Origin: Omnitrophica bacterium GWA2_41_15
Lineage (GTDB): Bacteria; Omnitrophota; Gorgyraeia; Ghiorseimicrobiales; Ghiorseimicrobiaceae
Assembly (NCBI GenBank): GCA_919902105.1
Contig: CAKKQO010000023.1
Coordinates: 2,128 to 66,127, forward strand
Reading direction: 5' to 3'
Length of the DNA stretch: 64,000 bases
Under the pieces are notes generated by a model that had not been told where the DNA came from, made no database searches, and saw only the letters and a list, made by a program, of their open reading frames with translations. The translations under genes and the position numbers were made by a program. Positions 5,479 to 37,172 of this stretch are shown in pieces. Position 1 is the stretch's first letter; the number at the start of each line of letters is the position of its first letter.

Positions 5479-6156
5479 ATGTTGAGAGATGTAAAAAAAG
5501 GAATGTGGGTATTTTTTATTTTGGCATTAGCGGTTACGTTGAGCAGTTGCACTATAATTTTCCAGAAAGGAAGAAAGTCGGATGTCTCTCAAATAGAGAC
5601 TTTGAGCAAGCGGTTAAGTGAACTCGAGGATGTTAAAAAATTACTAGAGGAAAGGCTAAAGCAAGAAATTGCCGATAAACAGGTAAAGTTAGAAATGGCA
5701 GAGAAGGGTTTAGTGATTACCTTTCTTGCCGATATTCTCTTTGATTCAGGAAAGGCAGAAATCAGGCCGACAGCTTACGCGGCTTTAGATAAAATCGCTC
5801 GGGTGTTGAGTGAAAACGTCCCGGATATGAATGTAGGCATTGAAGGGCACACCGATAATGTTGCGATTAAACATTCAGGGTGGAAGTCTAACTGGGAGTT
5901 ATCGGCCCATCGCGCCTTAAGCGTATTGCATTATTTAGCAAACAAAAAAGGAGTTGCAGGAGAAAGAGTTTCGGCGATCGGCTATGGAGAGTTTCGTCCC
6001 GTCGCCTCCAATGATAGTAAAGAAGGGCGTCAGCTTAACCGCCGGGTAGAGATTGTTATCTTACCTAAGGTAACTAAGATAAAAAAGGCAGAAGCTAATA
6101 TGCCTCAAGAAGCACCGGCTGCTGAAGAAGTTGGGCAGGAAGAGAATTTGAAATAG
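5479..6156 (+). CDS. OmpA/MotB-domain peptidoglycan-binding lipoprotein with coiled-coil linker
   Basis: Signal plus lipobox (LTLSSC). C-terminal OmpA_C-like motifs (FDSGKAEI, GHTDN, NWELSAHRA, NRRVEIV). Strong RBS AGGAGG. Confidence 0.8.
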   Translation: MLRDVKKGMWVFFILALAVTLSSCTIIFQKGRKSDVSQIETLSKRLSELEDVKKLLEERLKQEIADKQVKLEMAEKGLVITFLADILFDSGKAEIRPTAYAALDKIARVLSENVPDMNVGIEGHTDNVAIKHSGWKSNWELSAHRALSVLHYLANKKGVAGERVSAIGYGEFRPVASNDSKEGRQLNRRVEIVILPKVTKIKKAEANMPQEAPAAEEVGQEENLK

Positions 6157-27276: not shown

Positions 27277-28971
27277 ATGCTAAGCGATATTGAGATAGCA
27301 CAGGCGGCAAAACTAAAGCCAGTCCAGAAAATAGCCGCATCTATCGGTATCAAAGAAACCGATTTGGAACTATACGGAAAGTATAAAGCTAAAGTTCTGC
27401 CCACTGCTTTAAAAAAGATAAAGACTAAAAGGCAGGCGAAATATGTTTTAGTTACAGCAATTACGCCTACGCCCTTAGGTGAGGGTAAAACCGTAACCAC
27501 TATTGGCCTATCCATGGCGCTAAATAGGATAGGCAAAAAAGCTATTGCTTGTATCCGCCAGCCGTCGCTTGGCCCAGTCTTTGGGATTAAAGGAGGGGCG
27601 GCCGGAGGCGGGTATTCGCAGGTAGTGCCGATGGAAGATTTTAACCTGCATTTAACCGGCGATGTGCATGCCGTAGGACTTGCGCATAATTTATGCGCCG
27701 CTTTTTTGGAGAACGCTTTATTCAGGAAAAAACTTAATATTGACCATAAAGCCGTTTTTTGGCGAAGAGTTCTAGATGTAAGCGACAGGTCATTACGTAA
27801 AATCAGCGTTGGTTTAGATGATAAGGTAGATGGGGTTTATCCCAGAGAGACCGGTTTTGATATTACAGTGGCGTCTGAAATAATGGCAATTTTAGCGCTT
27901 TCAAGTGATCTCCAGGATTTACGCCGTCGTCTCGGCAGGATTGTCTTAGCCAAGACTTTTGACGGTAAATATGTTACCCCTGAAGATTTAAAGGTTGCCG
28001 GCTCAATGGCAGCGCTTTTAAAAGACGCGGTGCACCCAAATTTAATGCAGACTTTGGATAATACTCCTGTCTTTGTGCATGCCGGGCCGTTTGCCAATAT
28101 CGCGCATGGAAATAGCTCTATTATCGCCGATAAAATCGCGGTAAGTTTAGCGGATTTTGTAGTAACAGAGGCAGGCTTTGGCGCAGACTGCGGGGCAGAG
28201 AAATTTTTTGATATTAAATGCCGCGTCAGCGGCCTTAAGCCGGATGCGGCAGTTTTAGTCTGCACCGTGCGCGCCTTAAAAATGCACTCTGGTAAATTTA
28301 CGGTTAAGCCGGGCAAGCCGCTTGATGAGGGATTACTCCGTGAGAATCTTCCTGCTATTAGAGAGGGTGCTGCAAACTTAGAAAAACAGATTGAGAATAT
28401 TAAAATTTTTGGTATCCCGGTTGTAGTGACGATTAACAGATTCTCCGCCGATACAGATAAAGAAATCGCCTTAATTAAAGAGATTGCCAAAAATGCCGGA
28501 GCCGAAGATGCGATAGTTAGTGATTTATTCGCCAAGGGCTCAAAAGGCGGAGAGGAATTAGCCGAGAAGATAGTTGAAGTCTCCAAGAAAAAAGCGAATT
28601 TTAAATTTCTTTATGAACTGGATAGCACGATTGAAGAAAAGATGTGGGTAATTGCTACCAAGATTTACGGGGCAAAGGATATTGATATTTCGCCGAAAGC
28701 TTTAGAACAGATAGAAGAATTTAATAAATTAGGTTTTAATGGGCTTCCTCTGTGTATGGCAAAGACGCATTTGTCGCTTTCGCATGACCCGGAATTAAAA
28801 GGACGGCCGAAAGACTTTGTCGTGCCAATCCGCGAAATAAAAGTCTCTGCGGGTGCCGGATTTTTATACGCGCTCTTAGGCGATATGCGCACTATGCCGG
28901 GGTTGCCTTCTGTTCCGGCAGGGACAAAGATAGATATTGATAAAGATGGAAAGATAGTGGGATTGTCATAA
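27277..28971 (+). CDS. fhs: Formate-tetrahydrofolate ligase
   Basis: SDIEIAQ, TPTPLGEGKTT, GIKGGAAGGGY, and PLCMAKT.LS.S near the C-terminus; 564 aa. Confidence 0.97.
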   Translation: MLSDIEIAQAAKLKPVQKIAASIGIKETDLELYGKYKAKVLPTALKKIKTKRQAKYVLVTAITPTPLGEGKTVTTIGLSMALNRIGKKAIACIRQPSLGPVFGIKGGAAGGGYSQVVPMEDFNLHLTGDVHAVGLAHNLCAAFLENALFRKKLNIDHKAVFWRRVLDVSDRSLRKISVGLDDKVDGVYPRETGFDITVASEIMAILALSSDLQDLRRRLGRIVLAKTFDGKYVTPEDLKVAGSMAALLKDAVHPNLMQTLDNTPVFVHAGPFANIAHGNSSIIADKIAVSLADFVVTEAGFGADCGAEKFFDIKCRVSGLKPDAAVLVCTVRALKMHSGKFTVKPGKPLDEGLLRENLPAIREGAANLEKQIENIKIFGIPVVVTINRFSADTDKEIALIKEIAKNAGAEDAIVSDLFAKGSKGGEELAEKIVEVSKKKANFKFLYELDSTIEEKMWVIATKIYGAKDIDISPKALEQIEEFNKLGFNGLPLCMAKTHLSLSHDPELKGRPKDFVVPIREIKVSAGAGFLYALLGDMRTMPGLPSVPAGTKIDIDKDGKIVGLS

Positions 28972-29188: not shown

Positions 29189-29662
29189 ATGATGTACAAG
29201 AATCAATCTCTTAAAAAATATCTCGATGATTTGGCGGGAAAGCTGCCCGCACCCGGAGGAGGTAGTGCCGCCGCCCTTAGCGGCGCTTTGGGTTGCGCGC
29301 TTTTGTCAATGGTATCTAACTTTACCGTTGGCAAAGAAAAATACAGGAAATACGAAAAAGAAATAAAAGGTATTTTATTAAAGTGCGAGAGTTATAGGAA
29401 AAGGTTTTTGGAGTTAGTGGATTTAGATGTTAAAACATATTCAGCTTATGCTAACGCTAAAGACAAAAAATCTAAAAGTATGGCGAAAAAAGAATCGCAG
29501 AGAGTAGCTAAAGAAATTAACTCTTTAAGTTATAAAGCAATACAATTATGTTTTCCTTTGGCGGAAAAAGGCAATATATATTTGATAAATGATGTCTTAG
29601 CCGGCGCGGAACTTTTGAGCGCCGCCTTTAATGCGGCGTTGATTAACATAGAAGCCGAATAA
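29189..29662 (+). CDS. fchA: Cyclodeaminase/cyclohydrolase-family protein (methenyl-THF cyclohydrolase FchA-like)
   Basis: LPAPGGGSAAALSGALGCALLSMV signature. Sits between fhs and folD. At 157 aa it is shorter than typical family members. Confidence 0.75.
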   Translation: MMYKNQSLKKYLDDLAGKLPAPGGGSAAALSGALGCALLSMVSNFTVGKEKYRKYEKEIKGILLKCESYRKRFLELVDLDVKTYSAYANAKDKKSKSMAKKESQRVAKEINSLSYKAIQLCFPLAEKGNIYLINDVLAGAELLSAAFNAALINIEAE

Positions 29663-29874: not shown

Positions 29875-30720
29875 ATGAGTGCTAAATTATTAGAAGGAAA
29901 ACCGATTGCCGAAAAAATCAAGGAAGAGATAAGAAAAGAAATTAAGACATTGGGGAGGAAGCCTGTCTTAGCCACCATTCAAGTAGGTGAGAATCCTCAA
30001 AGCACAATCTATTTGAAATCTCAAAAGAAACGGGCTCAAGAACTGGACATAGAGCTTCAAGAGCATATTCTTTTAGACTCAATAGCTGAATCGGAACTTA
30101 TAAATTATATCAGAAAATTAAATCAGGACAAAAATGTAACTGGAATACTTTTGCAACTGCCTTTACCTAGCCAGATAAATTCCAAAAATATTCCTATTCA
30201 TATCGACCCCCTAAAAGATGTAGAAGGTATGCATCCAGAAAACGTAGGCCAAGCCATTTTTGGTAAGATGAGGATTGGTTCTTGCACTGCTCTTGCGGTA
30301 ATGGAATTGATTAATGCTACAGGTGTAGACTTATATGGAAAAGAAGCAGTTATAGTGGGCCACAGCGAAATTGTGGGTAAGCCGGTTAGTCTTCTCCTCT
30401 TAGATAAACTTGCTACCACTACCACCTGCCATATTGCCACGGGCCAAAGAGGTTATCTGCCTACCCATGTCAAAAGGGCAGAGATTTTAGTAGTAGCCGT
30501 AGGAAAGCCGGGAATCATCCACGGTGAATGGGTTAAAGAGGGTGCAATTGTCATAGATGTAGGCATAAACCGCGTCAACGACAAAATCGTCGGCGATGTG
30601 GAATTTGAGAAGGCGTATGAGCGGGCAAGCTACATTACGCCTGTCCCCGGAGGAGTCGGCCCGGTAACCACCATTATGCTGATGCGTAATTTGGTTGAAT
30701 CTGCGAAGTTGCAACGATAA
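29875..30720 (+). CDS. folD: Bifunctional methylene-THF dehydrogenase / methenyl-THF cyclohydrolase
   Basis: LLEGKPIAEKI start, GILLQLPLP, VVGHSEIVGKP, PVPGGVGPVT. Start set at ATG 29875. Confidence 0.95.
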   Translation: MSAKLLEGKPIAEKIKEEIRKEIKTLGRKPVLATIQVGENPQSTIYLKSQKKRAQELDIELQEHILLDSIAESELINYIRKLNQDKNVTGILLQLPLPSQINSKNIPIHIDPLKDVEGMHPENVGQAIFGKMRIGSCTALAVMELINATGVDLYGKEAVIVGHSEIVGKPVSLLLLDKLATTTTCHIATGQRGYLPTHVKRAEILVVAVGKPGIIHGEWVKEGAIVIDVGINRVNDKIVGDVEFEKAYERASYITPVPGGVGPVTTIMLMRNLVESAKLQR

Positions 30721-30725
30721 AGTTT

Positions 30726-31103
30726 ATGCTAAAGAGTATTTTCAAAACAGGCATCCTATTAAGCGTAGGCCTTCTTCTTATTACGGGTTGCGCAAAGACT
30801 AAAAACATTGATGATTTGTTACTCCATTTTGAAAGCCAGGGGCTATCCATAGAAGATCCGCCCGCCATAAGTGCCGAAGAAAAAAGGGTTGTGGAGGGCG
30901 CTAAGAAAATGTTTGCCGCGGCCGGGATTAAAGGCGGCAAAAATGGCCCGGTTGAGCGGAAAAAGAAAATTATAGAAGGCATAAAGGTTGGCATAAGCAG
31001 GTACGCAAATAATATTCTGGCCGAAAAGGCATGCCAGAATTTAACCGCATTTGAAGAACGGCGCAAAAAACGCGCTATCGAAAAATCTTCACCATATTTT
31101 TAA
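30726..31103 (+). CDS. Lipoprotein of unknown function; an in-frame TAA is followed by 48 more open codons
   Basis: Signal plus lipobox LLITGC. After the TAA at 31101-31103 the same frame remains open to TAG 31248-31250. Confidence 0.55.
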   Translation: MLKSIFKTGILLSVGLLLITGCAKTKNIDDLLLHFESQGLSIEDPPAISAEEKRVVEGAKKMFAAAGIKGGKNGPVERKKKIIEGIKVGISRYANNILAEKACQNLTAFEERRKKRAIEKSSPYF

Positions 31104-31281
31104 AAGGGTTATTTTTTAAACGCTACGTTTCTGTTAGAGGTTGAATATTATAAAGTAAAAATATTGCCGGGGGGCCTAGGCGCGGATAAGAGTAGCATAG
31201 ATGAAACCGCCTTATCAAAAATTAAGCAGGCCTTTGAGAGTTTTAAGTAGCTCTAAGCGGAATTATTTAGTTGGATTTATA

Positions 31282-31310
31282 TTGATTAGCGCGGCGGTAT
31301 TTGTTATATT
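31282..31310 (+). promoter_or_regulatory. Candidate sigma70-type promoter upstream of the small island
   Basis: TTGATT, 17-nt spacer, TGtTATATT (extended -10), 43 nt before ATG 31354. Confidence 0.45.
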
Positions 31311-31353
31311 TAAAAAGTGGTAGAGTGACGGAAATAATGAGGAAAAATTTAAT

Positions 31354-31698
31354 ATGGTTAAGAAATTAAATTTTTTGACGGCCTTGGTCACTTTCATCGC
31401 AGCGGTTATAGGATTAATCATAGGGATTCAAAATAGTACTAAAATTGTATCTCTGACAGCGAATGTTAATTCAAATAATATTCGTGTTAACGCAGATTTA
31501 AATAATATAAGCAATAAAATCATATCTATCAATAAAGATATCACGACTATTCGTGGTGATGTTAAGAATGCCGCGGGTATGAAAATAACTGCTATAGGTG
31601 GTGGTCAAGGCGATGTTACCGGTATGAGTGTAACAGCGATTGGTGATGGCAAGAGTAATATTACAGGCTTAGAAGTTGATACTATAATTGGGGAATAG
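31354..31698 (+). CDS. Small membrane-anchored repeat protein, unknown function
   Basis: One N-terminal TM helix, an N-rich middle, and C-terminal 15-aa tandem repeats GMKITAIGGGQGDVT / GMSVTAIGDGKSNIT / GLEVDTIIGE. Confidence 0.5.
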   Translation: MVKKLNFLTALVTFIAAVIGLIIGIQNSTKIVSLTANVNSNNIRVNADLNNISNKIISINKDITTIRGDVKNAAGMKITAIGGGQGDVTGMSVTAIGDGKSNITGLEVDTIIGE

Positions 31699-31701
31699 AA
31701 A

Positions 31702-32004
31702 ATGTTATCACGAAATAAAATTATAGAAATTTTAAAAAAAGAATTTCCGCGCTTAAAAGCTGAATTTAGCGTAAAAAAGATAGGTATTTTTGGCTCCTAT
31801 GCGACGGGTGCGGCGGGGAAAGCCAGCGATGTGGATATTTTTATAGATTTTACAAAACCCATAGGCCTTAAGTTTATGGATTTAGCCGAGCATTTAGAAA
31901 AAATATTGGGGAAAAAGGTAGATATCTTGACTCCTGCCGGCATAAAGGGCATAAGAATAAAACAAATCTCTCAAAGCATTAAGAAAAGTTTAATCTATGT
32001 CTAA
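31702..32004 (+). CDS. mntA: MNT-type nucleotidyltransferase antitoxin
   Basis: GIFGSYATG...SDVDIFIDF (GS-x-G / DxD minimal nucleotidyltransferase motif). 100 aa. Overlaps the next gene by 8 nt. Confidence 0.85.
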   Translation: MLSRNKIIEILKKEFPRLKAEFSVKKIGIFGSYATGAAGKASDVDIFIDFTKPIGLKFMDLAEHLEKILGKKVDILTPAGIKGIRIKQISQSIKKSLIYV

Positions 32005-32341
32005 AAGAGCGGACAAGGATTTACTTAGCGATATCAAAGAATCTATCCTGCGGATAAATAGATATAGCGATAAGGTAACTTATGCGGAATTTATGCGGGA
32101 TACCAAAATCCAGGATGCGGTAGTGCGTAACATTGAAATTATCGGCGAGGCGGTAAAGAATTTATCTGAAGCAGAAAGAAGAAAGTATCCAAAAGTCCCA
32201 TGGAAAGAGTTAGCCAAAATGAGAGATAGGCTTATTCACCATTATTTCGGGGTTAATTACGAAATTGTTTGGAGTATAATCAGAGAAGAATTACCGAATA
32301 TTGCGGCAGGGCTTAAGATGAGTAGCGGGGGATTAAAATGA
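31997..32341 (+). CDS. hepT: HEPN/DUF86 RNase toxin
   Basis: R-x4-H motif (RDRLIHHYF). 114 aa. Classic MNT-HEPN pair order. Confidence 0.85.
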   Translation: MSKRADKDLLSDIKESILRINRYSDKVTYAEFMRDTKIQDAVVRNIEIIGEAVKNLSEAERRKYPKVPWKELAKMRDRLIHHYFGVNYEIVWSIIREELPNIAAGLKMSSGGLK

Positions 32342-33207
32342 CTTTTAAGGAGAAGGTGCAGGCTAAAAAGTTTATTGTAACCGATGAGGTTGGCCCGCCA
32401 AAGGGTATTGAGACTAAGGTGATTTTAGAAGATTGCGCGTTGATAAAAAACCGCGTGGATGCGATTAACGTTACCGATTTACAGAGCTCAGTTATGCGGC
32501 TGGGGTCTTTGGCAGTTTCAGGTATTCTAAAACAGCACGGCTTTGAGCCGGTATATCAGCTAACCTGCCGGGATAGGAATCGACTGGCGCTTCAATCGGA
32601 TATTTTATCCGCCGCCGCTTTGGGGATAGAAAATATTTTACTTTTAACCGGCGACCATCCTTCGTTAGGCGACCACCCGCAGGCAAAGGCGGTATTTGAT
32701 ATTGATTCGGTGCAGTTGCTTGATGCGGTCAAGGGGATAGAGCAAGGCGTGGATATGGCTGGAAAAAAATTGCAAGGTATGCTTCCAAAATTTTTTAAGG
32801 GGGCTGTGGTTAATCCAGGGGCTGAGCCGCTTGAGCCGCAGATCCTAAAGATGAAGAAAAAGATTGCCGCGGGCGCTGAATTTTTCCAGACGCAGGCAGT
32901 GTATGAAGTAGATAAATTTGCCAAGTTTATGTCCGAGGTAAAGAGTTTTGGCATACCGATATTTGCCGGGATTGTGCTTTTAAAATCTGCTGGTATGGCG
33001 CGTTTTATGAATAAAAACGTTGCTGGTGTATTTGTACCGGATAATTTGATAAAGGAAATTGACGAGGCAAAAGATAAGCAGGTAAAGTCGGTTGAGATTG
33101 CCGCGCGCTTGATTAAAGAATTAAAGCCGCTATGTCAAGGCATACATATTATGTCTATCGGCTGGGATAAATTAGTGCCGAACGTCTTAGATGCCGCTGG
33201 TTTATGA
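32338..33207 (+). CDS. metF: Methylene-tetrahydrofolate reductase, acetogen-type small MetF
   Basis: VGPPKG, INVTDLQ, QLTCRDRNRLALQSD, LLLTGDHP, FFQTQAVY. ATGA overlaps on both sides. Confidence 0.88.
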   Translation: MTFKEKVQAKKFIVTDEVGPPKGIETKVILEDCALIKNRVDAINVTDLQSSVMRLGSLAVSGILKQHGFEPVYQLTCRDRNRLALQSDILSAAALGIENILLLTGDHPSLGDHPQAKAVFDIDSVQLLDAVKGIEQGVDMAGKKLQGMLPKFFKGAVVNPGAEPLEPQILKMKKKIAAGAEFFQTQAVYEVDKFAKFMSEVKSFGIPIFAGIVLLKSAGMARFMNKNVAGVFVPDNLIKEIDEAKDKQVKSVEIAARLIKELKPLCQGIHIMSIGWDKLVPNVLDAAGL

Positions 33208-34988: not shown

Positions 34989-37172
34989 ATGTCTAAAATA
35001 GTTGCACAAGCAGTTATTCGCGGCGCAAAAAAAATTGCCAAACTTGCAGAGGATGATTTGACTAAAGCAATTCTAGATAAAGGGGAAAGCCAAAAGGTAG
35101 AATTTCCCGAGACGGCTTTTTATTTTCCTATGGCCAATGCCCTTTTGGGAGCGGAGGTAAAAACCTTAGGCGATGCCAAGAAGATTTTAGCGCATCTAAA
35201 GAAGCTCCTGCCGTGCGAAATTCCCACGGATCAACTCTGGCTTCCTTATTTGGGCGATGCCTTAGACGCCGGAATCGCTACTTTATTGGCTGAAGAAATA
35301 ATCGTCGCTATCCGTTATCTTTACGGTAGAGAGCCTCAGGCCGATTGCAATGGCTTTTTTACGGATACGATTATGCGCTCTCTGGGGATTCAATTGGTTG
35401 ATGGCCGTATGCCTGGCTTTGCCGCGATATTAGGAGCAACACCCGATAACCAGATAGCTTTGGAAATTATCCGTCAGCTTCAGGAAAGAAATATCCTTAT
35501 TTTTGTGGGATCAGAAAGCTCCGGCCGCTCCATCGTTGACCAATTAAAAGAAGAAGATGTGCAGATGGGCTGGGACAATTATATTGTGCCTTATGGCCGC
35601 GATACTATCTCGGCAATCTATCCTCTAAATTGGGCGATAAGGTCAGCGCTTACCTTCGGTGGACTTAAACCGGGACAGGCAAAAAAATGCCTGCTTTATT
35701 GTAAAGAAAGGGTCTTTGCTTTTGGTTTAGCTTTAGGTTTAGTTGATGATGAAAAATATGCTACGGGAGCAGGTGCAATTAATATGGGCTTTCCGGTAAT
35801 CGCGGATACAGATATTCCAGAGATTCATCCCACAGGAATTACTACATATGAAGCGTTGGTAAAAGAATTAGATTACAAGAAAATTGTGCCGCGTTGTATT
35901 GAGGTAAGAGGAGTCAAGGTAAAAGTTGCCCATATCCCTATTCCGGTTCTCTATGGCGCGGCTTTTGAAGGAGAGCGCGTGCGCAAAGAGCAGGTATTTG
36001 CCGAATTTGGAGGAAAGCTTTCTTTAGCATTTGAATATTTAAAAAGTTGTGATTCAGATAGAGTAAATGACGGTCAAGTCGAGCTTATCGGACCGGATAT
36101 AGATAATATGCCCGAGGGCACAAAATCCATGCCTCTGGGGATAGTGATAGAAGTTGCCGGACGGAAAATGCAGAAAGATTTTGAGCCAATCTTTGAACGG
36201 CAGATTCACCATTTTATAAATTGCGCTATGGGCTTAATGCATGTCGGCCAGCGGGATATGGTTTGGATACGCATAAGCAAGGATGCGGCAGGCAAGGGAT
36301 TCCGGCTGAAACATATCGGCGTACTTTTGCATGCTAAATTGCACGAAGATTACGGAGCAATTGTAGATAAGGTAAGTGTGAAACTTTATACTAAACAGGA
36401 AGATGTGGAGAAATTTGTTGAGGAGGCAAAGAAGGTTTATAGCGAGCGCGATGAGCGCATCAGCGGAATGACTGATGAAAGCGTGGATACCTTTTATTCC
36501 TGTATGTTGTGCCAGTCTTTTGCTCCTAACCATGTCTGCGTAATTACTCCAGAAAGGCTGGGGTTATGCGGTGCTTATTCCTGGCTGGATACCAAAGCCG
36601 CATATGAGATTATGCCTTCAGGCGGAAATCAGCCGGTTAAAAAAGGAAAGGTGATAGGTGAAAAACTCGGCCAGTGGGAGGAGGTGAATAAGTTTTTTTA
36701 TAACAAGTCCAACAAGACTATAGAGAAGGTGAGCATGTATTCTATTATGGACAATCCCCAGACCTCCTGCGGATGTTTTGAATGTATTCTGGCTATAATC
36801 CCCGAGGCAAACGGGGTGATGGTTGTGCACCGTGATTATTCTGGGATGACTCCCTGCGGTATGAATTTTACCACTTTGGCTGGCTCGGTTGGCGGTGGAG
36901 TACAGACCCCGGGTTTTTTAGGAGTGGGTAAATTATATCTTGTAAGTAAAAAATTTATCTCCGCAGATGGCGGGCTTGCGAGACTTGTCTGGATGCCCAA
37001 GGAATTGAAGGAAATGCTGGCAGATAAATTGAAGAGGCGCGCAAAGGAGATAGGCATACCTGATTTTATAGACAAAATTTCCGATGAAACTAACGCTACA
37101 ACCAGCGAGGAACTCCTTGCCCATTTAGAAAAAGTTGGACATCCAGCTTTAAAACTTCCACCGTTAATGTGA
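34989..37172 (+). CDS. acsB: Acetyl-CoA synthase catalytic subunit (A-cluster subunit of CODH/ACS)
   Basis: Near-colinear with my recollection of Moorella AcsB: FYSCMLCQSFAPNHVCVITPERLGLCGA, TSCGCFECILAI (Cys-Gly-Cys A-cluster ligands), TLAGSVGGGVQTPGF, KKFISADGG; 727 aa. Confidence 0.95.
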   Translation: MSKIVAQAVIRGAKKIAKLAEDDLTKAILDKGESQKVEFPETAFYFPMANALLGAEVKTLGDAKKILAHLKKLLPCEIPTDQLWLPYLGDALDAGIATLLAEEIIVAIRYLYGREPQADCNGFFTDTIMRSLGIQLVDGRMPGFAAILGATPDNQIALEIIRQLQERNILIFVGSESSGRSIVDQLKEEDVQMGWDNYIVPYGRDTISAIYPLNWAIRSALTFGGLKPGQAKKCLLYCKERVFAFGLALGLVDDEKYATGAGAINMGFPVIADTDIPEIHPTGITTYEALVKELDYKKIVPRCIEVRGVKVKVAHIPIPVLYGAAFEGERVRKEQVFAEFGGKLSLAFEYLKSCDSDRVNDGQVELIGPDIDNMPEGTKSMPLGIVIEVAGRKMQKDFEPIFERQIHHFINCAMGLMHVGQRDMVWIRISKDAAGKGFRLKHIGVLLHAKLHEDYGAIVDKVSVKLYTKQEDVEKFVEEAKKVYSERDERISGMTDESVDTFYSCMLCQSFAPNHVCVITPERLGLCGAYSWLDTKAAYEIMPSGGNQPVKKGKVIGEKLGQWEEVNKFFYNKSNKTIEKVSMYSIMDNPQTSCGCFECILAIIPEANGVMVVHRDYSGMTPCGMNFTTLAGSVGGGVQTPGFLGVGKLYLVSKKFISADGGLARLVWMPKELKEMLADKLKRRAKEIGIPDFIDKISDETNATTSEELLAHLEKVGHPALKLPPLM

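Follow-up and report, generated by a model that had tools for sequence, protein, structure and literature searches.

A groundwater Candidatus Omnitrophota chromosome carries a gene for a minimal nucleotidyltransferase (MNT), a gene for a HEPN protein and a small open reading frame, rep114, directly 5' of metF. Is this a new, three-component toxin-antitoxin (TA) system tied to a carbon-fixation operon, or a known two-gene module that settled beside a metabolic gene? The initial annotation of the window, i.e., of the whole 64,000-nucleotide stretch of DNA analysed, had placed three small genes between a degraded lipoprotein gene and metF, and all three open reading frames were found there. Taken as a whole, the locus is probably a ~1.0-kb lineage-specific insertion in a variable spacer 5' of metF that carries two unrelated items. 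We consider it likely that these two items are a HepT/MntA pair and an orphan passenger, rep114. The features of the region are as follows.

30726-31250, + strand: lipoprotein gene (lipobox LITGC), with an in-frame TAA at 31101-31103
31255-31323, + strand: relic of a DMT_6 (DUF486) membrane-transporter gene, last 22 codons (ending in NYLVGFILISAAVFVIFKKW) and stop
31282-31310, + strand: sigma-70-like match, TTGATT-17-TATATT with upstream TG, 9/12 matches; candidate only
31324-32333, no strand: lineage-specific segment of ~1.0 kb, where the closest relative, L004, has a ~0.32-kb non-coding DMT_6-metF spacer
31354-31698, + strand: rep114, 114 residues, orphan, membrane-anchored
31576-31665, + strand: two tandem 45-nt units of rep114, encoding GMKITAIGGGQGDVT and GMSVTAIGDGKSNIT
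31702-32004, + strand: mntA-type antitoxin gene, 100 residues, minimal nucleotidyltransferase
31997-32341, + strand: hepT-type toxin gene, 114 residues, HEPN/DUF86 RNase
32327-32332, + strand: Shine-Dalgarno-like GGGGGA, 5 nt 5' of the metF ATG, within the hepT coding sequence
32338-33207, + strand: metF (methylenetetrahydrofolate reductase), 289 residues

The genes are tightly packed. Three nt separate rep114 from mntA, the mntA and hepT genes overlap by 8 nt (31997-32004), and the hepT stop and the metF start share the sequence ATGA (4-nt overlap, 32338-32341). Both overlaps, and with them the close packing against metF, had been described before and are present as described.

A class I type VII HepT/MntA pair

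The MNT protein matches PF01909 (E=2.8e-15), PADLOC PDC-S09 (E=2e-25) and PDB entry 1WOT (E=3.5e-4). Its GSX10DXD motif can be read from the sequence as G31-S32-X10-D43-V-D45, the third Asp residue is D74, and all 39 columns that are invariant in close homologues are kept, including the catalytic residues. The HEPN protein matches the HepT-like family PF01934 (E=2.5e-28, 98.6 bits for a cut-off of 23.5) and has 1,773 homologues at E<=1e-10. Its RX4HXY motif, also read from the sequence, is R76-DRLI-H81-H82-Y83; the R, H and Y columns are invariant across 20 homologues, and 34 of 34 invariant columns are kept overall. Its profile matches the Shewanella HepT structures 5YEP and 6M6U (E=2e-7), with these three residues aligned to R97, H102 and Y104 of SO_3166. 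In a Foldseek search of the PDB with its AlphaFold2 (AF2) model (pLDDT 86.8, pTM 0.80), the top 14 matches were Shewanella HepT chains (probability 0.99-1.00, TM 0.56-0.66). Against the NCBIfam equivalog models NF047752 (MntA_antitoxin) and NF047751 (HepT_toxin), for both of which the curated cut-off is 60 bits, MNT and HEPN score 41.9 and 48.9 bits, respectively. The two proteins thus appear to be related to the Shewanella-type proteins of these models, short of an equivalog call.

We used the definition of class I type VII HepT/MntA systems given in PMC7641770. The locus combines a PF01934-type HEPN protein with RX4HXY and a PF01909 MNT protein with GSX10DXD, the antitoxin gene lies 5' of the toxin gene and adjoins it, and the AF2 model and Foldseek matches assign a HepT fold to the toxin. 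The domains, motifs, invariant residues and predicted fold are those of a textbook class I type VII HepT/MntA pair. The identification of MNT and HEPN as a TA pair in the initial annotation is borne out by the Pfam matches, both defining motifs and the HepT-like predicted fold.

If the pair works like its Shewanella oneidensis and Aphanizomenon counterparts, HepT would be an Rx4H RNase that cleaves mRNA. The GSX10DXD active site of MntA would (oligo)AMPylate the Tyr residue of RX4HXY, here Y83, and this modification would hold HepT inactive as long as the antitoxin is produced. Such activities would make the pair a selfish addiction module or possibly a defence module. Both MNT and HEPN reading frames are full length, every catalytic residue is among the invariant columns kept, and the HEPN model is a confident one, which makes it very unlikely that the pair, and perhaps rep114 as well, are non-functional leftovers heading for decay. 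That the adjacent lipoprotein and DMT_6 genes are decaying would fit such a fate, as would the two equivalog scores under cut-off and the C-terminal tail of HEPN, which departs from the family consensus at residues ~104-114 and has AF2 confidence values <50 at residues 111-114.

An insertion between folD and metF

Blastn homology between the window and L004, the MetF protein of which is 91% identical to that of the window, ends at position 31321 and resumes at 32334, which sets the breakpoints at 31321/31324 and 32333/32334. The MNT, HEPN and rep114 genes are absent from all 44 related Omnitrophota folD-metF loci, L004 included. The proposal that the block is an insertion is therefore upheld by the comparison of folD-metF intervals. 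A relaxed tblastn search of the L004 spacer for remnants of the three genes gave chance-level similarities only, which neither shows nor excludes a clean loss from L004. The interval holds variable cargo across Omnitrophota; in the three nearest loci, metF is preceded by the block (window), by the 0.32-kb spacer (L004) or by a Zn-ribbon gene (L090). To call the presence of a TA module in this operon unusual was thus an overstatement, since different Omnitrophota have different cargo there.

The sequence of the block does not vary among three samples, and its neighbours are all housekeeping genes. Its GC content, 0.34-0.39 against 0.41, is not decisive evidence of a foreign origin, because the gap is small and overlaps with native genes (fchA and the oxidoreductase gene). 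We also considered a mobile genomic island or integrative element and rejected it: no integrase or transposase gene was found, a search for flanking repeats or hairpins gave only short matches, 79-94% identical and judged to be due to chance, and the window contains no tRNA gene that could be a target. Rfam searches of the whole window and of eight related loci revealed no riboswitch or leader 5' of metF and nothing else of relevance, and the only candidate for a conserved non-coding element common to the metF-upstream spacers of the relatives was an inverted match of 39 nt that L004 shares with L093.

Two genes on the 5' side of the block are decayed. The lipoprotein gene, described as degraded in the initial annotation, indeed has a single in-frame TAA at 31101-31103 where L004 has CAA. 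The product is thereby reduced to 125 residues from an ancestral 174, and the frame past the TAA can still be aligned up to the ancestral stop (31248-31250). By tblastn, residues 1-174 of the L004 orthologue align in one frame, with 67% identity; no Pfam or NCBIfam family was found for this lipoprotein. The second gene, a DMT_6 relic at 31255-31323, was absent from the initial annotation. It has lost ~261 nt of its 5' part and corresponds to residues 88-109 of the L004 protein (tblastn); at the DNA level, 31259-31321 is 87% identical to positions 5611-5673 of L004 (blastn), and the intact L004 gene matches PF04342 with E=1.4e-45. The decay of both neighbours probably accompanied the acquisition of the block or its persistence at this place.

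The sigma-70-like pattern at 31282-31310, earlier put forward as an extended -10 promoter of the island, sits inside this relic. The pattern does exist, but an identical one is found in the intact L004 DMT_6 gene (5634-5662); it is therefore conserved coding sequence and no feature of the island. The region contains 34 sigma-70-like matches, with 16.3 expected.

rep114, a probable passenger

The rep114 product is anchored by an N-terminal transmembrane (TM) segment, forms a long helix over residues 2-74 and ends in a C-terminal part rich in Gly, in which a 15-residue unit is duplicated; GAGGA is found 11 nt 5' of its ATG. The AF2 model has pLDDT values of 77-95 in the helix and 52-57 at the C-terminus. 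The description of 15-residue tandem repeats holds for two units, 8/15 residues and 30/45 nt of which are identical, but not for the third one proposed, GLEVDTIIGE, which is weak (11-16/30 nt); TRF called no DNA tandem repeat in this region, the similarity being under its threshold.

An exhaustive phmmer search among 1.84 billion representative proteins yielded one homologue, P0121 (97 residues, E=1.8e-7), which has a single repeat unit instead of two. Its gene lies 5' of uvrA, with no MNT or HEPN gene. rep114 and P0121 constitute a very small new family, made up of just these two proteins. Three further phmmer matches were rejected as homologues, one because it carries YadA_stalk repeats and two because they are internally repetitive. 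No homologue was found in a word-indexed search of 5.8 billion proteins or in viral contigs, and a profile search returned nothing beyond P0121. The AF2 model had no Foldseek match, the soluble part had no Pfam match even at E<=10, and a profile search of the PDB gave only coiled coils, all at E>0.4. PHROG matches were obtained for rep114 (E=0.005) and for P0121 (E=5e-4); that of P0121 is to an Rz-like spanin.

Rz-like i-spanins and YadA_stalk proteins (stalks of trimeric autotransporter adhesins) share the architecture of rep114, in which a long helix rich in Asn and Ile comes after a TM anchor, and a giant YadA_stalk-containing protein (P0122) shows weak similarity to rep114 (E=3e-7, repetitive). 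Unlike them, rep114 has no lysis-cassette or adhesin context, and its Gly-rich 15-residue units belong to no named family. We rejected its assignment as a trimeric autotransporter stalk or Rz-like spanin for want of a significant family match and of a lysis cassette nearby. There is good reason to regard rep114 as a small membrane-anchored coiled-coil protein that is a passenger and not a TA component.

The alternative is that rep114 is a functional partner of MntA/HepT, such as a membrane sensor or trigger, in a single three-component operon. The 3-nt gap between rep114 and mntA, their shared strand, their similarly low GC contents (0.348 and 0.343) and the fact that the complete 1.0-kb block is missing as one from L004 could be read in this way. 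However, the only homologue to emerge from the two sequence searches adjoins uvrA and no TA pair, and eight other close MNT/HEPN pairs have no rep114-like neighbour. In addition, the 29 nt 5' of the MNT gene in L084, the closest pair found elsewhere, encode no rep114-like C-terminus, the DNA similarity between the window and L084 reaches no further than 4 nt upstream of the MNT ATG, and the characterized HepT/MntA systems are two-gene modules (PMC7641770). We therefore find a three-component system most improbable. The gap and the matching low GC content make a shared history of rep114 and mntA possible. Of the two roles that the initial annotation had offered for the 114-residue protein, the gene-neighbourhood analysis, in which it never co-occurs with MNT/HEPN elsewhere, speaks for the unrelated passenger.

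Linkage with metF

The metF product matches PF02219 over positions 3-287 of 287 (E=4.8e-41), and relatives share its N-terminal sequence, MTFKEK. No type of junction is more frequent in the window than the ATGA overlap: 10 of the 58 co-directional junctions are 4-nt overlaps, nine of them ATGA. The fusion of a TA pair to metF had been presented as unusual. This is overstated, given those nine junctions and the routine occurrence of homologous pairs between housekeeping genes. No terminator-like site was detected on the + strand between 29296 and 33603. With co-directional genes and tight junctions, the block is probably transcribed with metF, which makes a rep114-mntA-hepT-metF transcript plausible. 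Translational coupling of metF to the termination of hepT is possible as well. Such linkage would have come about incidentally, the block having landed in the 5' leader of metF in a very compact genome, and would not be a designed regulatory circuit.

Of the TA pairs found elsewhere, L084 (GCA_017973895.1, JAEMOI010094791.1) is closest to the window pair, with 71% and 70% amino acid identity, and it bears on this point. In this locus, a 12-codon metF stub begins exactly at the HEPN stop, and its first 18 nt are those of the L004 metF start. The spacing is also similar, the metF ATG coming 41 nt (window) or 43 nt (L084) after the conserved 'ELP' codons. The HEPN-metF junction may hence be an old one that two diverged lineages have kept, and this could hint at selected linkage.

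In a reading along these lines, the TA pair was fixed at the 5' end of metF, where it supplies or gates the expression of metF and of the downstream ferredoxin, oxidoreductase and acsB genes, or else stabilizes the segment against deletion. Such control could come from a replaced promoter, from coupling to the translation of hepT or from HepT cutting the polycistronic mRNA. In the window, metF has lost the native 0.32-kb leader that it has in L004 and abuts hepT with no terminator-like site upstream, the TA pair is intact in a block identical in three samples, and the junction is apparently common to L084 although the TA proteins are only ~70% identical. Against this, 44 related loci, L004 included, run the same genes without the TA pair, metF retains its own Shine-Dalgarno-like GGGGGA, junctions with ATGA are commonplace in this genome, and the L084 evidence is a single 1.6-kb contig. 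The L084 deletion, which ends 12 codons past the TA pair and leaves it intact, can be taken both ways: metF was lost despite the TA pair, which counts against a stabilizing role for metF itself. Altogether, such domestication appears unlikely.

Its most far-reaching version would have HepT/MntA captured at the 5' end of metF before at least two now diverged Omnitrophota lineages separated, and kept there, so as to now provide a promoter and ribosome delivery to metF and the downstream acetyl-CoA-synthase genes, with rep114 as a possible input. We give this scenario very little credence. If true, the flow of carbon through the methyl branch would hinge on the state of an RNase toxin, i.e., the locus would be a toxin-gated carbon-fixation operon. 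An old and selected junction would give the locus more weight, as it would link an RNase toxin to Wood-Ljungdahl gene expression in an uncultured, energy-limited groundwater lineage. In the preferred reading as an insertion, the locus would be an example of a selfish two-gene module established in the leader of a metabolic gene that is essential. The host genome is streamlined, and the price would have been two adjacent genes.

Comparison with known HepT/MntA systems

Among chromosomal MNT/HEPN pairs of other uncultured bacteria (L084-L086 and L170-L175), the proteins are 56-71% identical to those of the window. These pairs resemble ours in their MNT size (100-106 residues), in the 8-nt overlap (the same in 6 of 7 homologous pairs) and in their co-directional position between housekeeping genes; neighbours include RecD/GDH, PGM/MutL, RNase E/G and KpsF-like genes. 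In contrast, they are 27-299 nt away from the next gene, the window pair being the only one to overlap it, and none of them adjoins a rep114-like gene. L084, with its stub, is the only one linked to metF, and neither metF nor a metF stub turned up in the other contexts of close HEPN homologues that were searched.

The Aphanizomenon flos-aquae HEPN/MNT system (PDB 7AE2, 7AE6, 7AE8 and 7AE9, with oligoAMPylated HEPN) belongs to the same family, with the same presumed neutralization by AMPylation of the Tyr residue next to Rx4H. Its HEPN protein is a weaker structural match to that of the window (Foldseek E 0.6-1.7, TM 0.4-0.5). The Shewanella oneidensis SO_3166/SO_3165 system (PDB 5YEP, 6M6U and 7BXO; PMC7641770) shares with the window pair the gene order, antitoxin first with an overlapping toxin gene, the PF01909 and PF01934 domains, the GSX10DXD and RX4HXY motifs and the helical HepT fold (TM 0.6-0.66). 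It differs in that sequence identity to the window pair is only ~17-19% and that the window proteins are shorter (100 and 114 residues, compared with 133-139 for the PDB HepT chains); moreover, the toxin gene of the window runs by its last 4 nt into a housekeeping gene. HepT/MntA next to metF is a known system, not a new type of system, in a position that is notable but unexceptional.

Genomic setting of the metF locus

The window is included in an 85.5-kb contig of a Hainich groundwater metagenome (ERZ1292641, 0.2-µm fraction). It forms an almost unbroken co-directional run of housekeeping genes, nearly all on the plus strand, without any tRNA gene or Rfam family in the 64 kb. This chromosome segment is extremely compact, since 20 of its 58 co-directional junctions overlap and 35 of the 58 are ≤10 nt apart. 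The features relevant here are as follows:

27277-28971, fhs
29189-29662, FTCD_C cyclodeaminase-like gene
29875-30720, folD
30726-31250, lipoprotein gene, interrupted
31255-31323, relic of a DMT_6 (DUF486) transporter gene
31354-31698, rep114, coding for an orphan 114-aa membrane-anchored protein
31702-32004, MNT, mntA-type antitoxin gene
31997-32341, HEPN, hepT-type toxin gene
32338-33207, metF
34989-37172, acsB, with polA next

Genes for a 2x[4Fe-4S] protein and a pyridine-nucleotide-disulphide oxidoreductase also belong to this Wood-Ljungdahl run. The region had initially been called a Wood-Ljungdahl operon; fhs, folD, metF and acsB are indeed present, but cooS/acsA, acsCD and acsE are absent from the window, and the term 'operon' is therefore only loosely applicable. 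The gene order fhs-fchA-folD-metF…acsB-polA is kept in many Omnitrophota loci, and polA, coaE and rho directly follow acsB in the window.

Identity of the MNT/HEPN pair

The initial annotation of an MNT nucleotidyltransferase and a HEPN/DUF86 RNase agrees with the Pfam matches of the 100-aa MNT (PF01909, E 2.8e-15) and the 114-aa HEPN (PF01934, HepT-like, E 2.5e-28). At NCBI the two proteins already have entries from an Omnitrophota MAG, MEK6714764.1 (nucleotidyltransferase domain-containing protein) and MEK6714765.1 (DUF86 domain-containing protein). HEPN has 1,773 homologues at E≤1e-10, the closest being 70% identical, and an alignment with 19 homologues showed that all 34 invariant positions are kept, including R76, D77, H81 and Y83. 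The profile derived from this alignment matched the Shewanella oneidensis HepT structures 5YEP and 6M6U (E 2e-7), with R76, H81 and Y83 corresponding to R97, H102 and Y104 of the Shewanella toxin, of which Y104 is the AMPylated tyrosine (PMC7641770). Chains of the same two entries were the best PDB matches of the HEPN AlphaFold model (pLDDT 86.8; TM 0.6-0.66). MNT harbours the motif G31-S32-X10-D43-V-D45 plus D74, and every residue that is invariant among its close relatives is retained. The protein also has a PADLOC match, to the candidate system PDC-S09 (E 2e-25). The pair might be an inert relic, as are remnants next to it (see below); with the invariant residues of both proteins in place, we consider this very improbable.

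An island inserted before metF

The three ORFs were found again as first described, with a 3-nt gap between rep114 and MNT, an 8-nt MNT/HEPN overlap and an ATGA shared by the HEPN stop and the metF start. The closest relative's folD-metF locus, L004 (JAUXSB010000003, a Candidatus Omnitrophota MAG), encodes a MetF 91% identical to that of the window. Homology between the two extends from folD to 31250, includes a further stretch at 31259-31321 and starts again at 32334, 4 nt ahead of the metF ATG. Where the window has ~1.0 kb before metF (31324-32333), L004 carries ~0.32 kb of non-coding DNA without traces of MNT, HEPN or rep114. We also collected 44 loci from genomes and metagenomes with folD upstream of metF on one strand, and tblastn searches of them with the three proteins yielded no matches. 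The island is thus absent from all 44 loci, L004 included, which bears out the proposed insertion.

The folD-metF interval is fluid. The distance is 0-70 nt in about half of the 44 loci, and other cargo includes DMT_6, cupin, pseudopilins, a pentapeptide-repeat protein, Smr and S4 domain proteins, a TrmA-like methyltransferase and GreA. In L090, the second-closest locus (MetF 85% identical), a zinc-ribbon protein gene lies 26 nt ahead of metF. In another Omnitrophota clade (L018-L021, L025 and L031, ~670 nt from folD to metF), the interval is occupied by a MetV-like PF12225 gene, coding for a Cys-rich, 220-aa protein of the MTHFR C-terminal type; the window clade lacks it and has ferredoxin and oxidoreductase genes after metF instead. 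Around the block we found no repeats, integrase or tRNA as marks of a mobile element. Its GC content is slightly lower (0.34-0.39 versus 0.41), inside the range of native genes, and its sequence is identical among contigs of three samples.

The L004 spacer (5676-6000) has a 39-nt inverted match (85%) to the metF-upstream spacer of L093 (3578-4000) and no Rfam match. Long ORF-free spacers also precede metF in L008 (409 nt) and L045 (608 nt), and a leader element in these spacers is possible.

Decayed neighbours

The lipoprotein gene, initially described as degraded, is interrupted by a single in-frame TAA (31101-31103) where its L004 counterpart has CAA. The L004 protein can be aligned in one frame across all 174 residues, up to the ancestral stop at 31248-31250, and the 48 codons after the TAA are still ~60% identical to L004, similar to the part before it, which suggests that the nonsense mutation is very recent or that the stop is read through. 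Contigs of three samples carry the TAA.

The initial annotation had overlooked the DMT_6 relic, which comprises the final 22 codons and stop, in an open frame, of a gene that is intact in L004 (109 aa) and has lost ~261 nt of its 5' part here. The relic shares 87% DNA identity with the 3' end of the L004 gene, more than the adjacent lipoprotein gene does (75%). The extended -10 promoter ascribed to the island (TTGATT-17-TATATT, 31282-31310) falls within this relic, and the same hexamer pair is present in the intact L004 gene; its conservation is therefore accounted for by coding sequence, and it lies outside the island. It may still serve as a promoter. The relic might have been kept as such, or its deletion may simply be recent.

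Placement of the pair

The fusion of a toxin-antitoxin module to a carbon-fixation operon had been considered unusual. Eight further loci with close homologues of the pair argue otherwise: in all of them the pair (MNT of 100-106 aa, 8-nt MNT/HEPN overlap, 14 nt in one) is wedged co-directionally amid unrelated housekeeping genes, with neighbours including RecD-like helicase and glutamate dehydrogenase, phosphoglycerate mutase and MutL, RNase E/G, and KpsF-like isomerase. These pairs are 27-299 nt from the next gene, whereas the window pair alone overlaps it. Among the junctions in the window, 4-nt overlaps of this kind are the most frequent type (10 of 58 co-directional junctions, 9 of them ATGA), and metF has its own GGGGGA 5 nt before the ATG. 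A selected linkage between the pair and metF would fit the overlap; set beside the ordinary character of such junctions and placements, it appears unlikely to us. The block is plausibly co-transcribed with metF and to some degree coupled to it in translation; both would be consequences of placement rather than evidence of design. In L171-L174, pairs ~64% identical to that of the window share an upstream gene (of the RNase E/G family in L171, L173 and L174, ending in …YNQRGSVVKL), placing the pair at a conserved chromosomal position there.

L084, a 1.6-kb contig (GCA_017973895.1, JAEMOI010094791.1) with 73% nt identity to window positions 31699-32298, carries the pair most similar to that of the window (aa identities of 71% and 70%). 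Directly at its HEPN stop lies ATGACATTTAAAGAGAAGCTAGAATCAATCAAAAAATAG, which encodes MTFKEKLESIKK*, a 12-codon stub (668-706) corresponding to the consensus N-terminus of Omnitrophota MetF; its first 18 nt are the same as the L004 metF start, and a RACo gene starts ~120 nt beyond. The last ~30 nt of the L084 HEPN gene resemble the L004 metF 5' leader (78% over 46 nt, E 0.004). Because of this stub and of the similar spacing between the conserved 'ELP' codons of HEPN and the ATG (43 nt in L084, 41 nt in the window), the HEPN/metF junction looks homologous in two lineages whose toxin-antitoxin proteins differ by 30%, metF having later been deleted in one. As folD, the lipoprotein gene and fchA share no more than 67-75% identity between window and L004, the pair may either have been retained vertically and lost in L004 or have been transferred laterally, by recombination via the metF flank.

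The orphan gene rep114

Of the 15-aa tandem repeats initially described in rep114, two units hold (8/15 residues and 30/45 nt identical); the third is weak, and TRF detected no DNA repeat. Neither Pfam nor NCBIfam has a family for the protein, and a weak match to 4HB_MCP_1 merely reflects the succession of a TM helix and a further helix. In the AlphaFold model, residues 2-74 form one long helix (pLDDT ~80-95) and the C-terminus is of low confidence; Foldseek, PDB profile, PHROGs and viral contig searches gave nothing significant. A word-indexed search of 5.8 billion proteins returned no matches, and exhaustive phmmer against 1.84 billion representatives yielded a single credible homologue, P0121 (97 aa, E 1.8e-7). 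The other phmmer matches were repetitive proteins, including a 7,883-aa YadA_stalk adhesin. P0121 has the same TM anchor and Asn/Ile-rich helix, which supports rep114 as a real gene; its single Gly-rich unit, against two in rep114, indicates an internal duplication in the latter.

The initial annotation had left open whether rep114 is a third component or an unrelated passenger. A three-component system would accord with the adjacency of the three genes, but P0121 is encoded just upstream of uvrA, without MNT/HEPN on its contig. The DNA similarity between window and L084 starts 4 nt ahead of the MNT ATG, and the 29 nt upstream of MNT in L084 encode no rep114-like end. We conclude that rep114 is a passenger; a tripartite system is highly improbable.

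Comparison with known systems

Altogether, the locus probably combines a canonical HepT/MntA module, for addiction or defence, with an unrelated orphan gene; in this compact genome the two would have landed as one block in the metF leader, the decay of two neighbouring genes being collateral to its settling. The predicted features of the pair are exactly those defining the class I HepT/MntA systems of Yao et al., who counted 15,977 such pairs (PMC7641770). The NCBIfam equivalog models for HepT and MntA were matched below their cut-offs, making the pair a family member rather than an equivalog of the Shewanella proteins. This kind of system is thus already known, and what is new is another HepT/MntA member, in a notable position.
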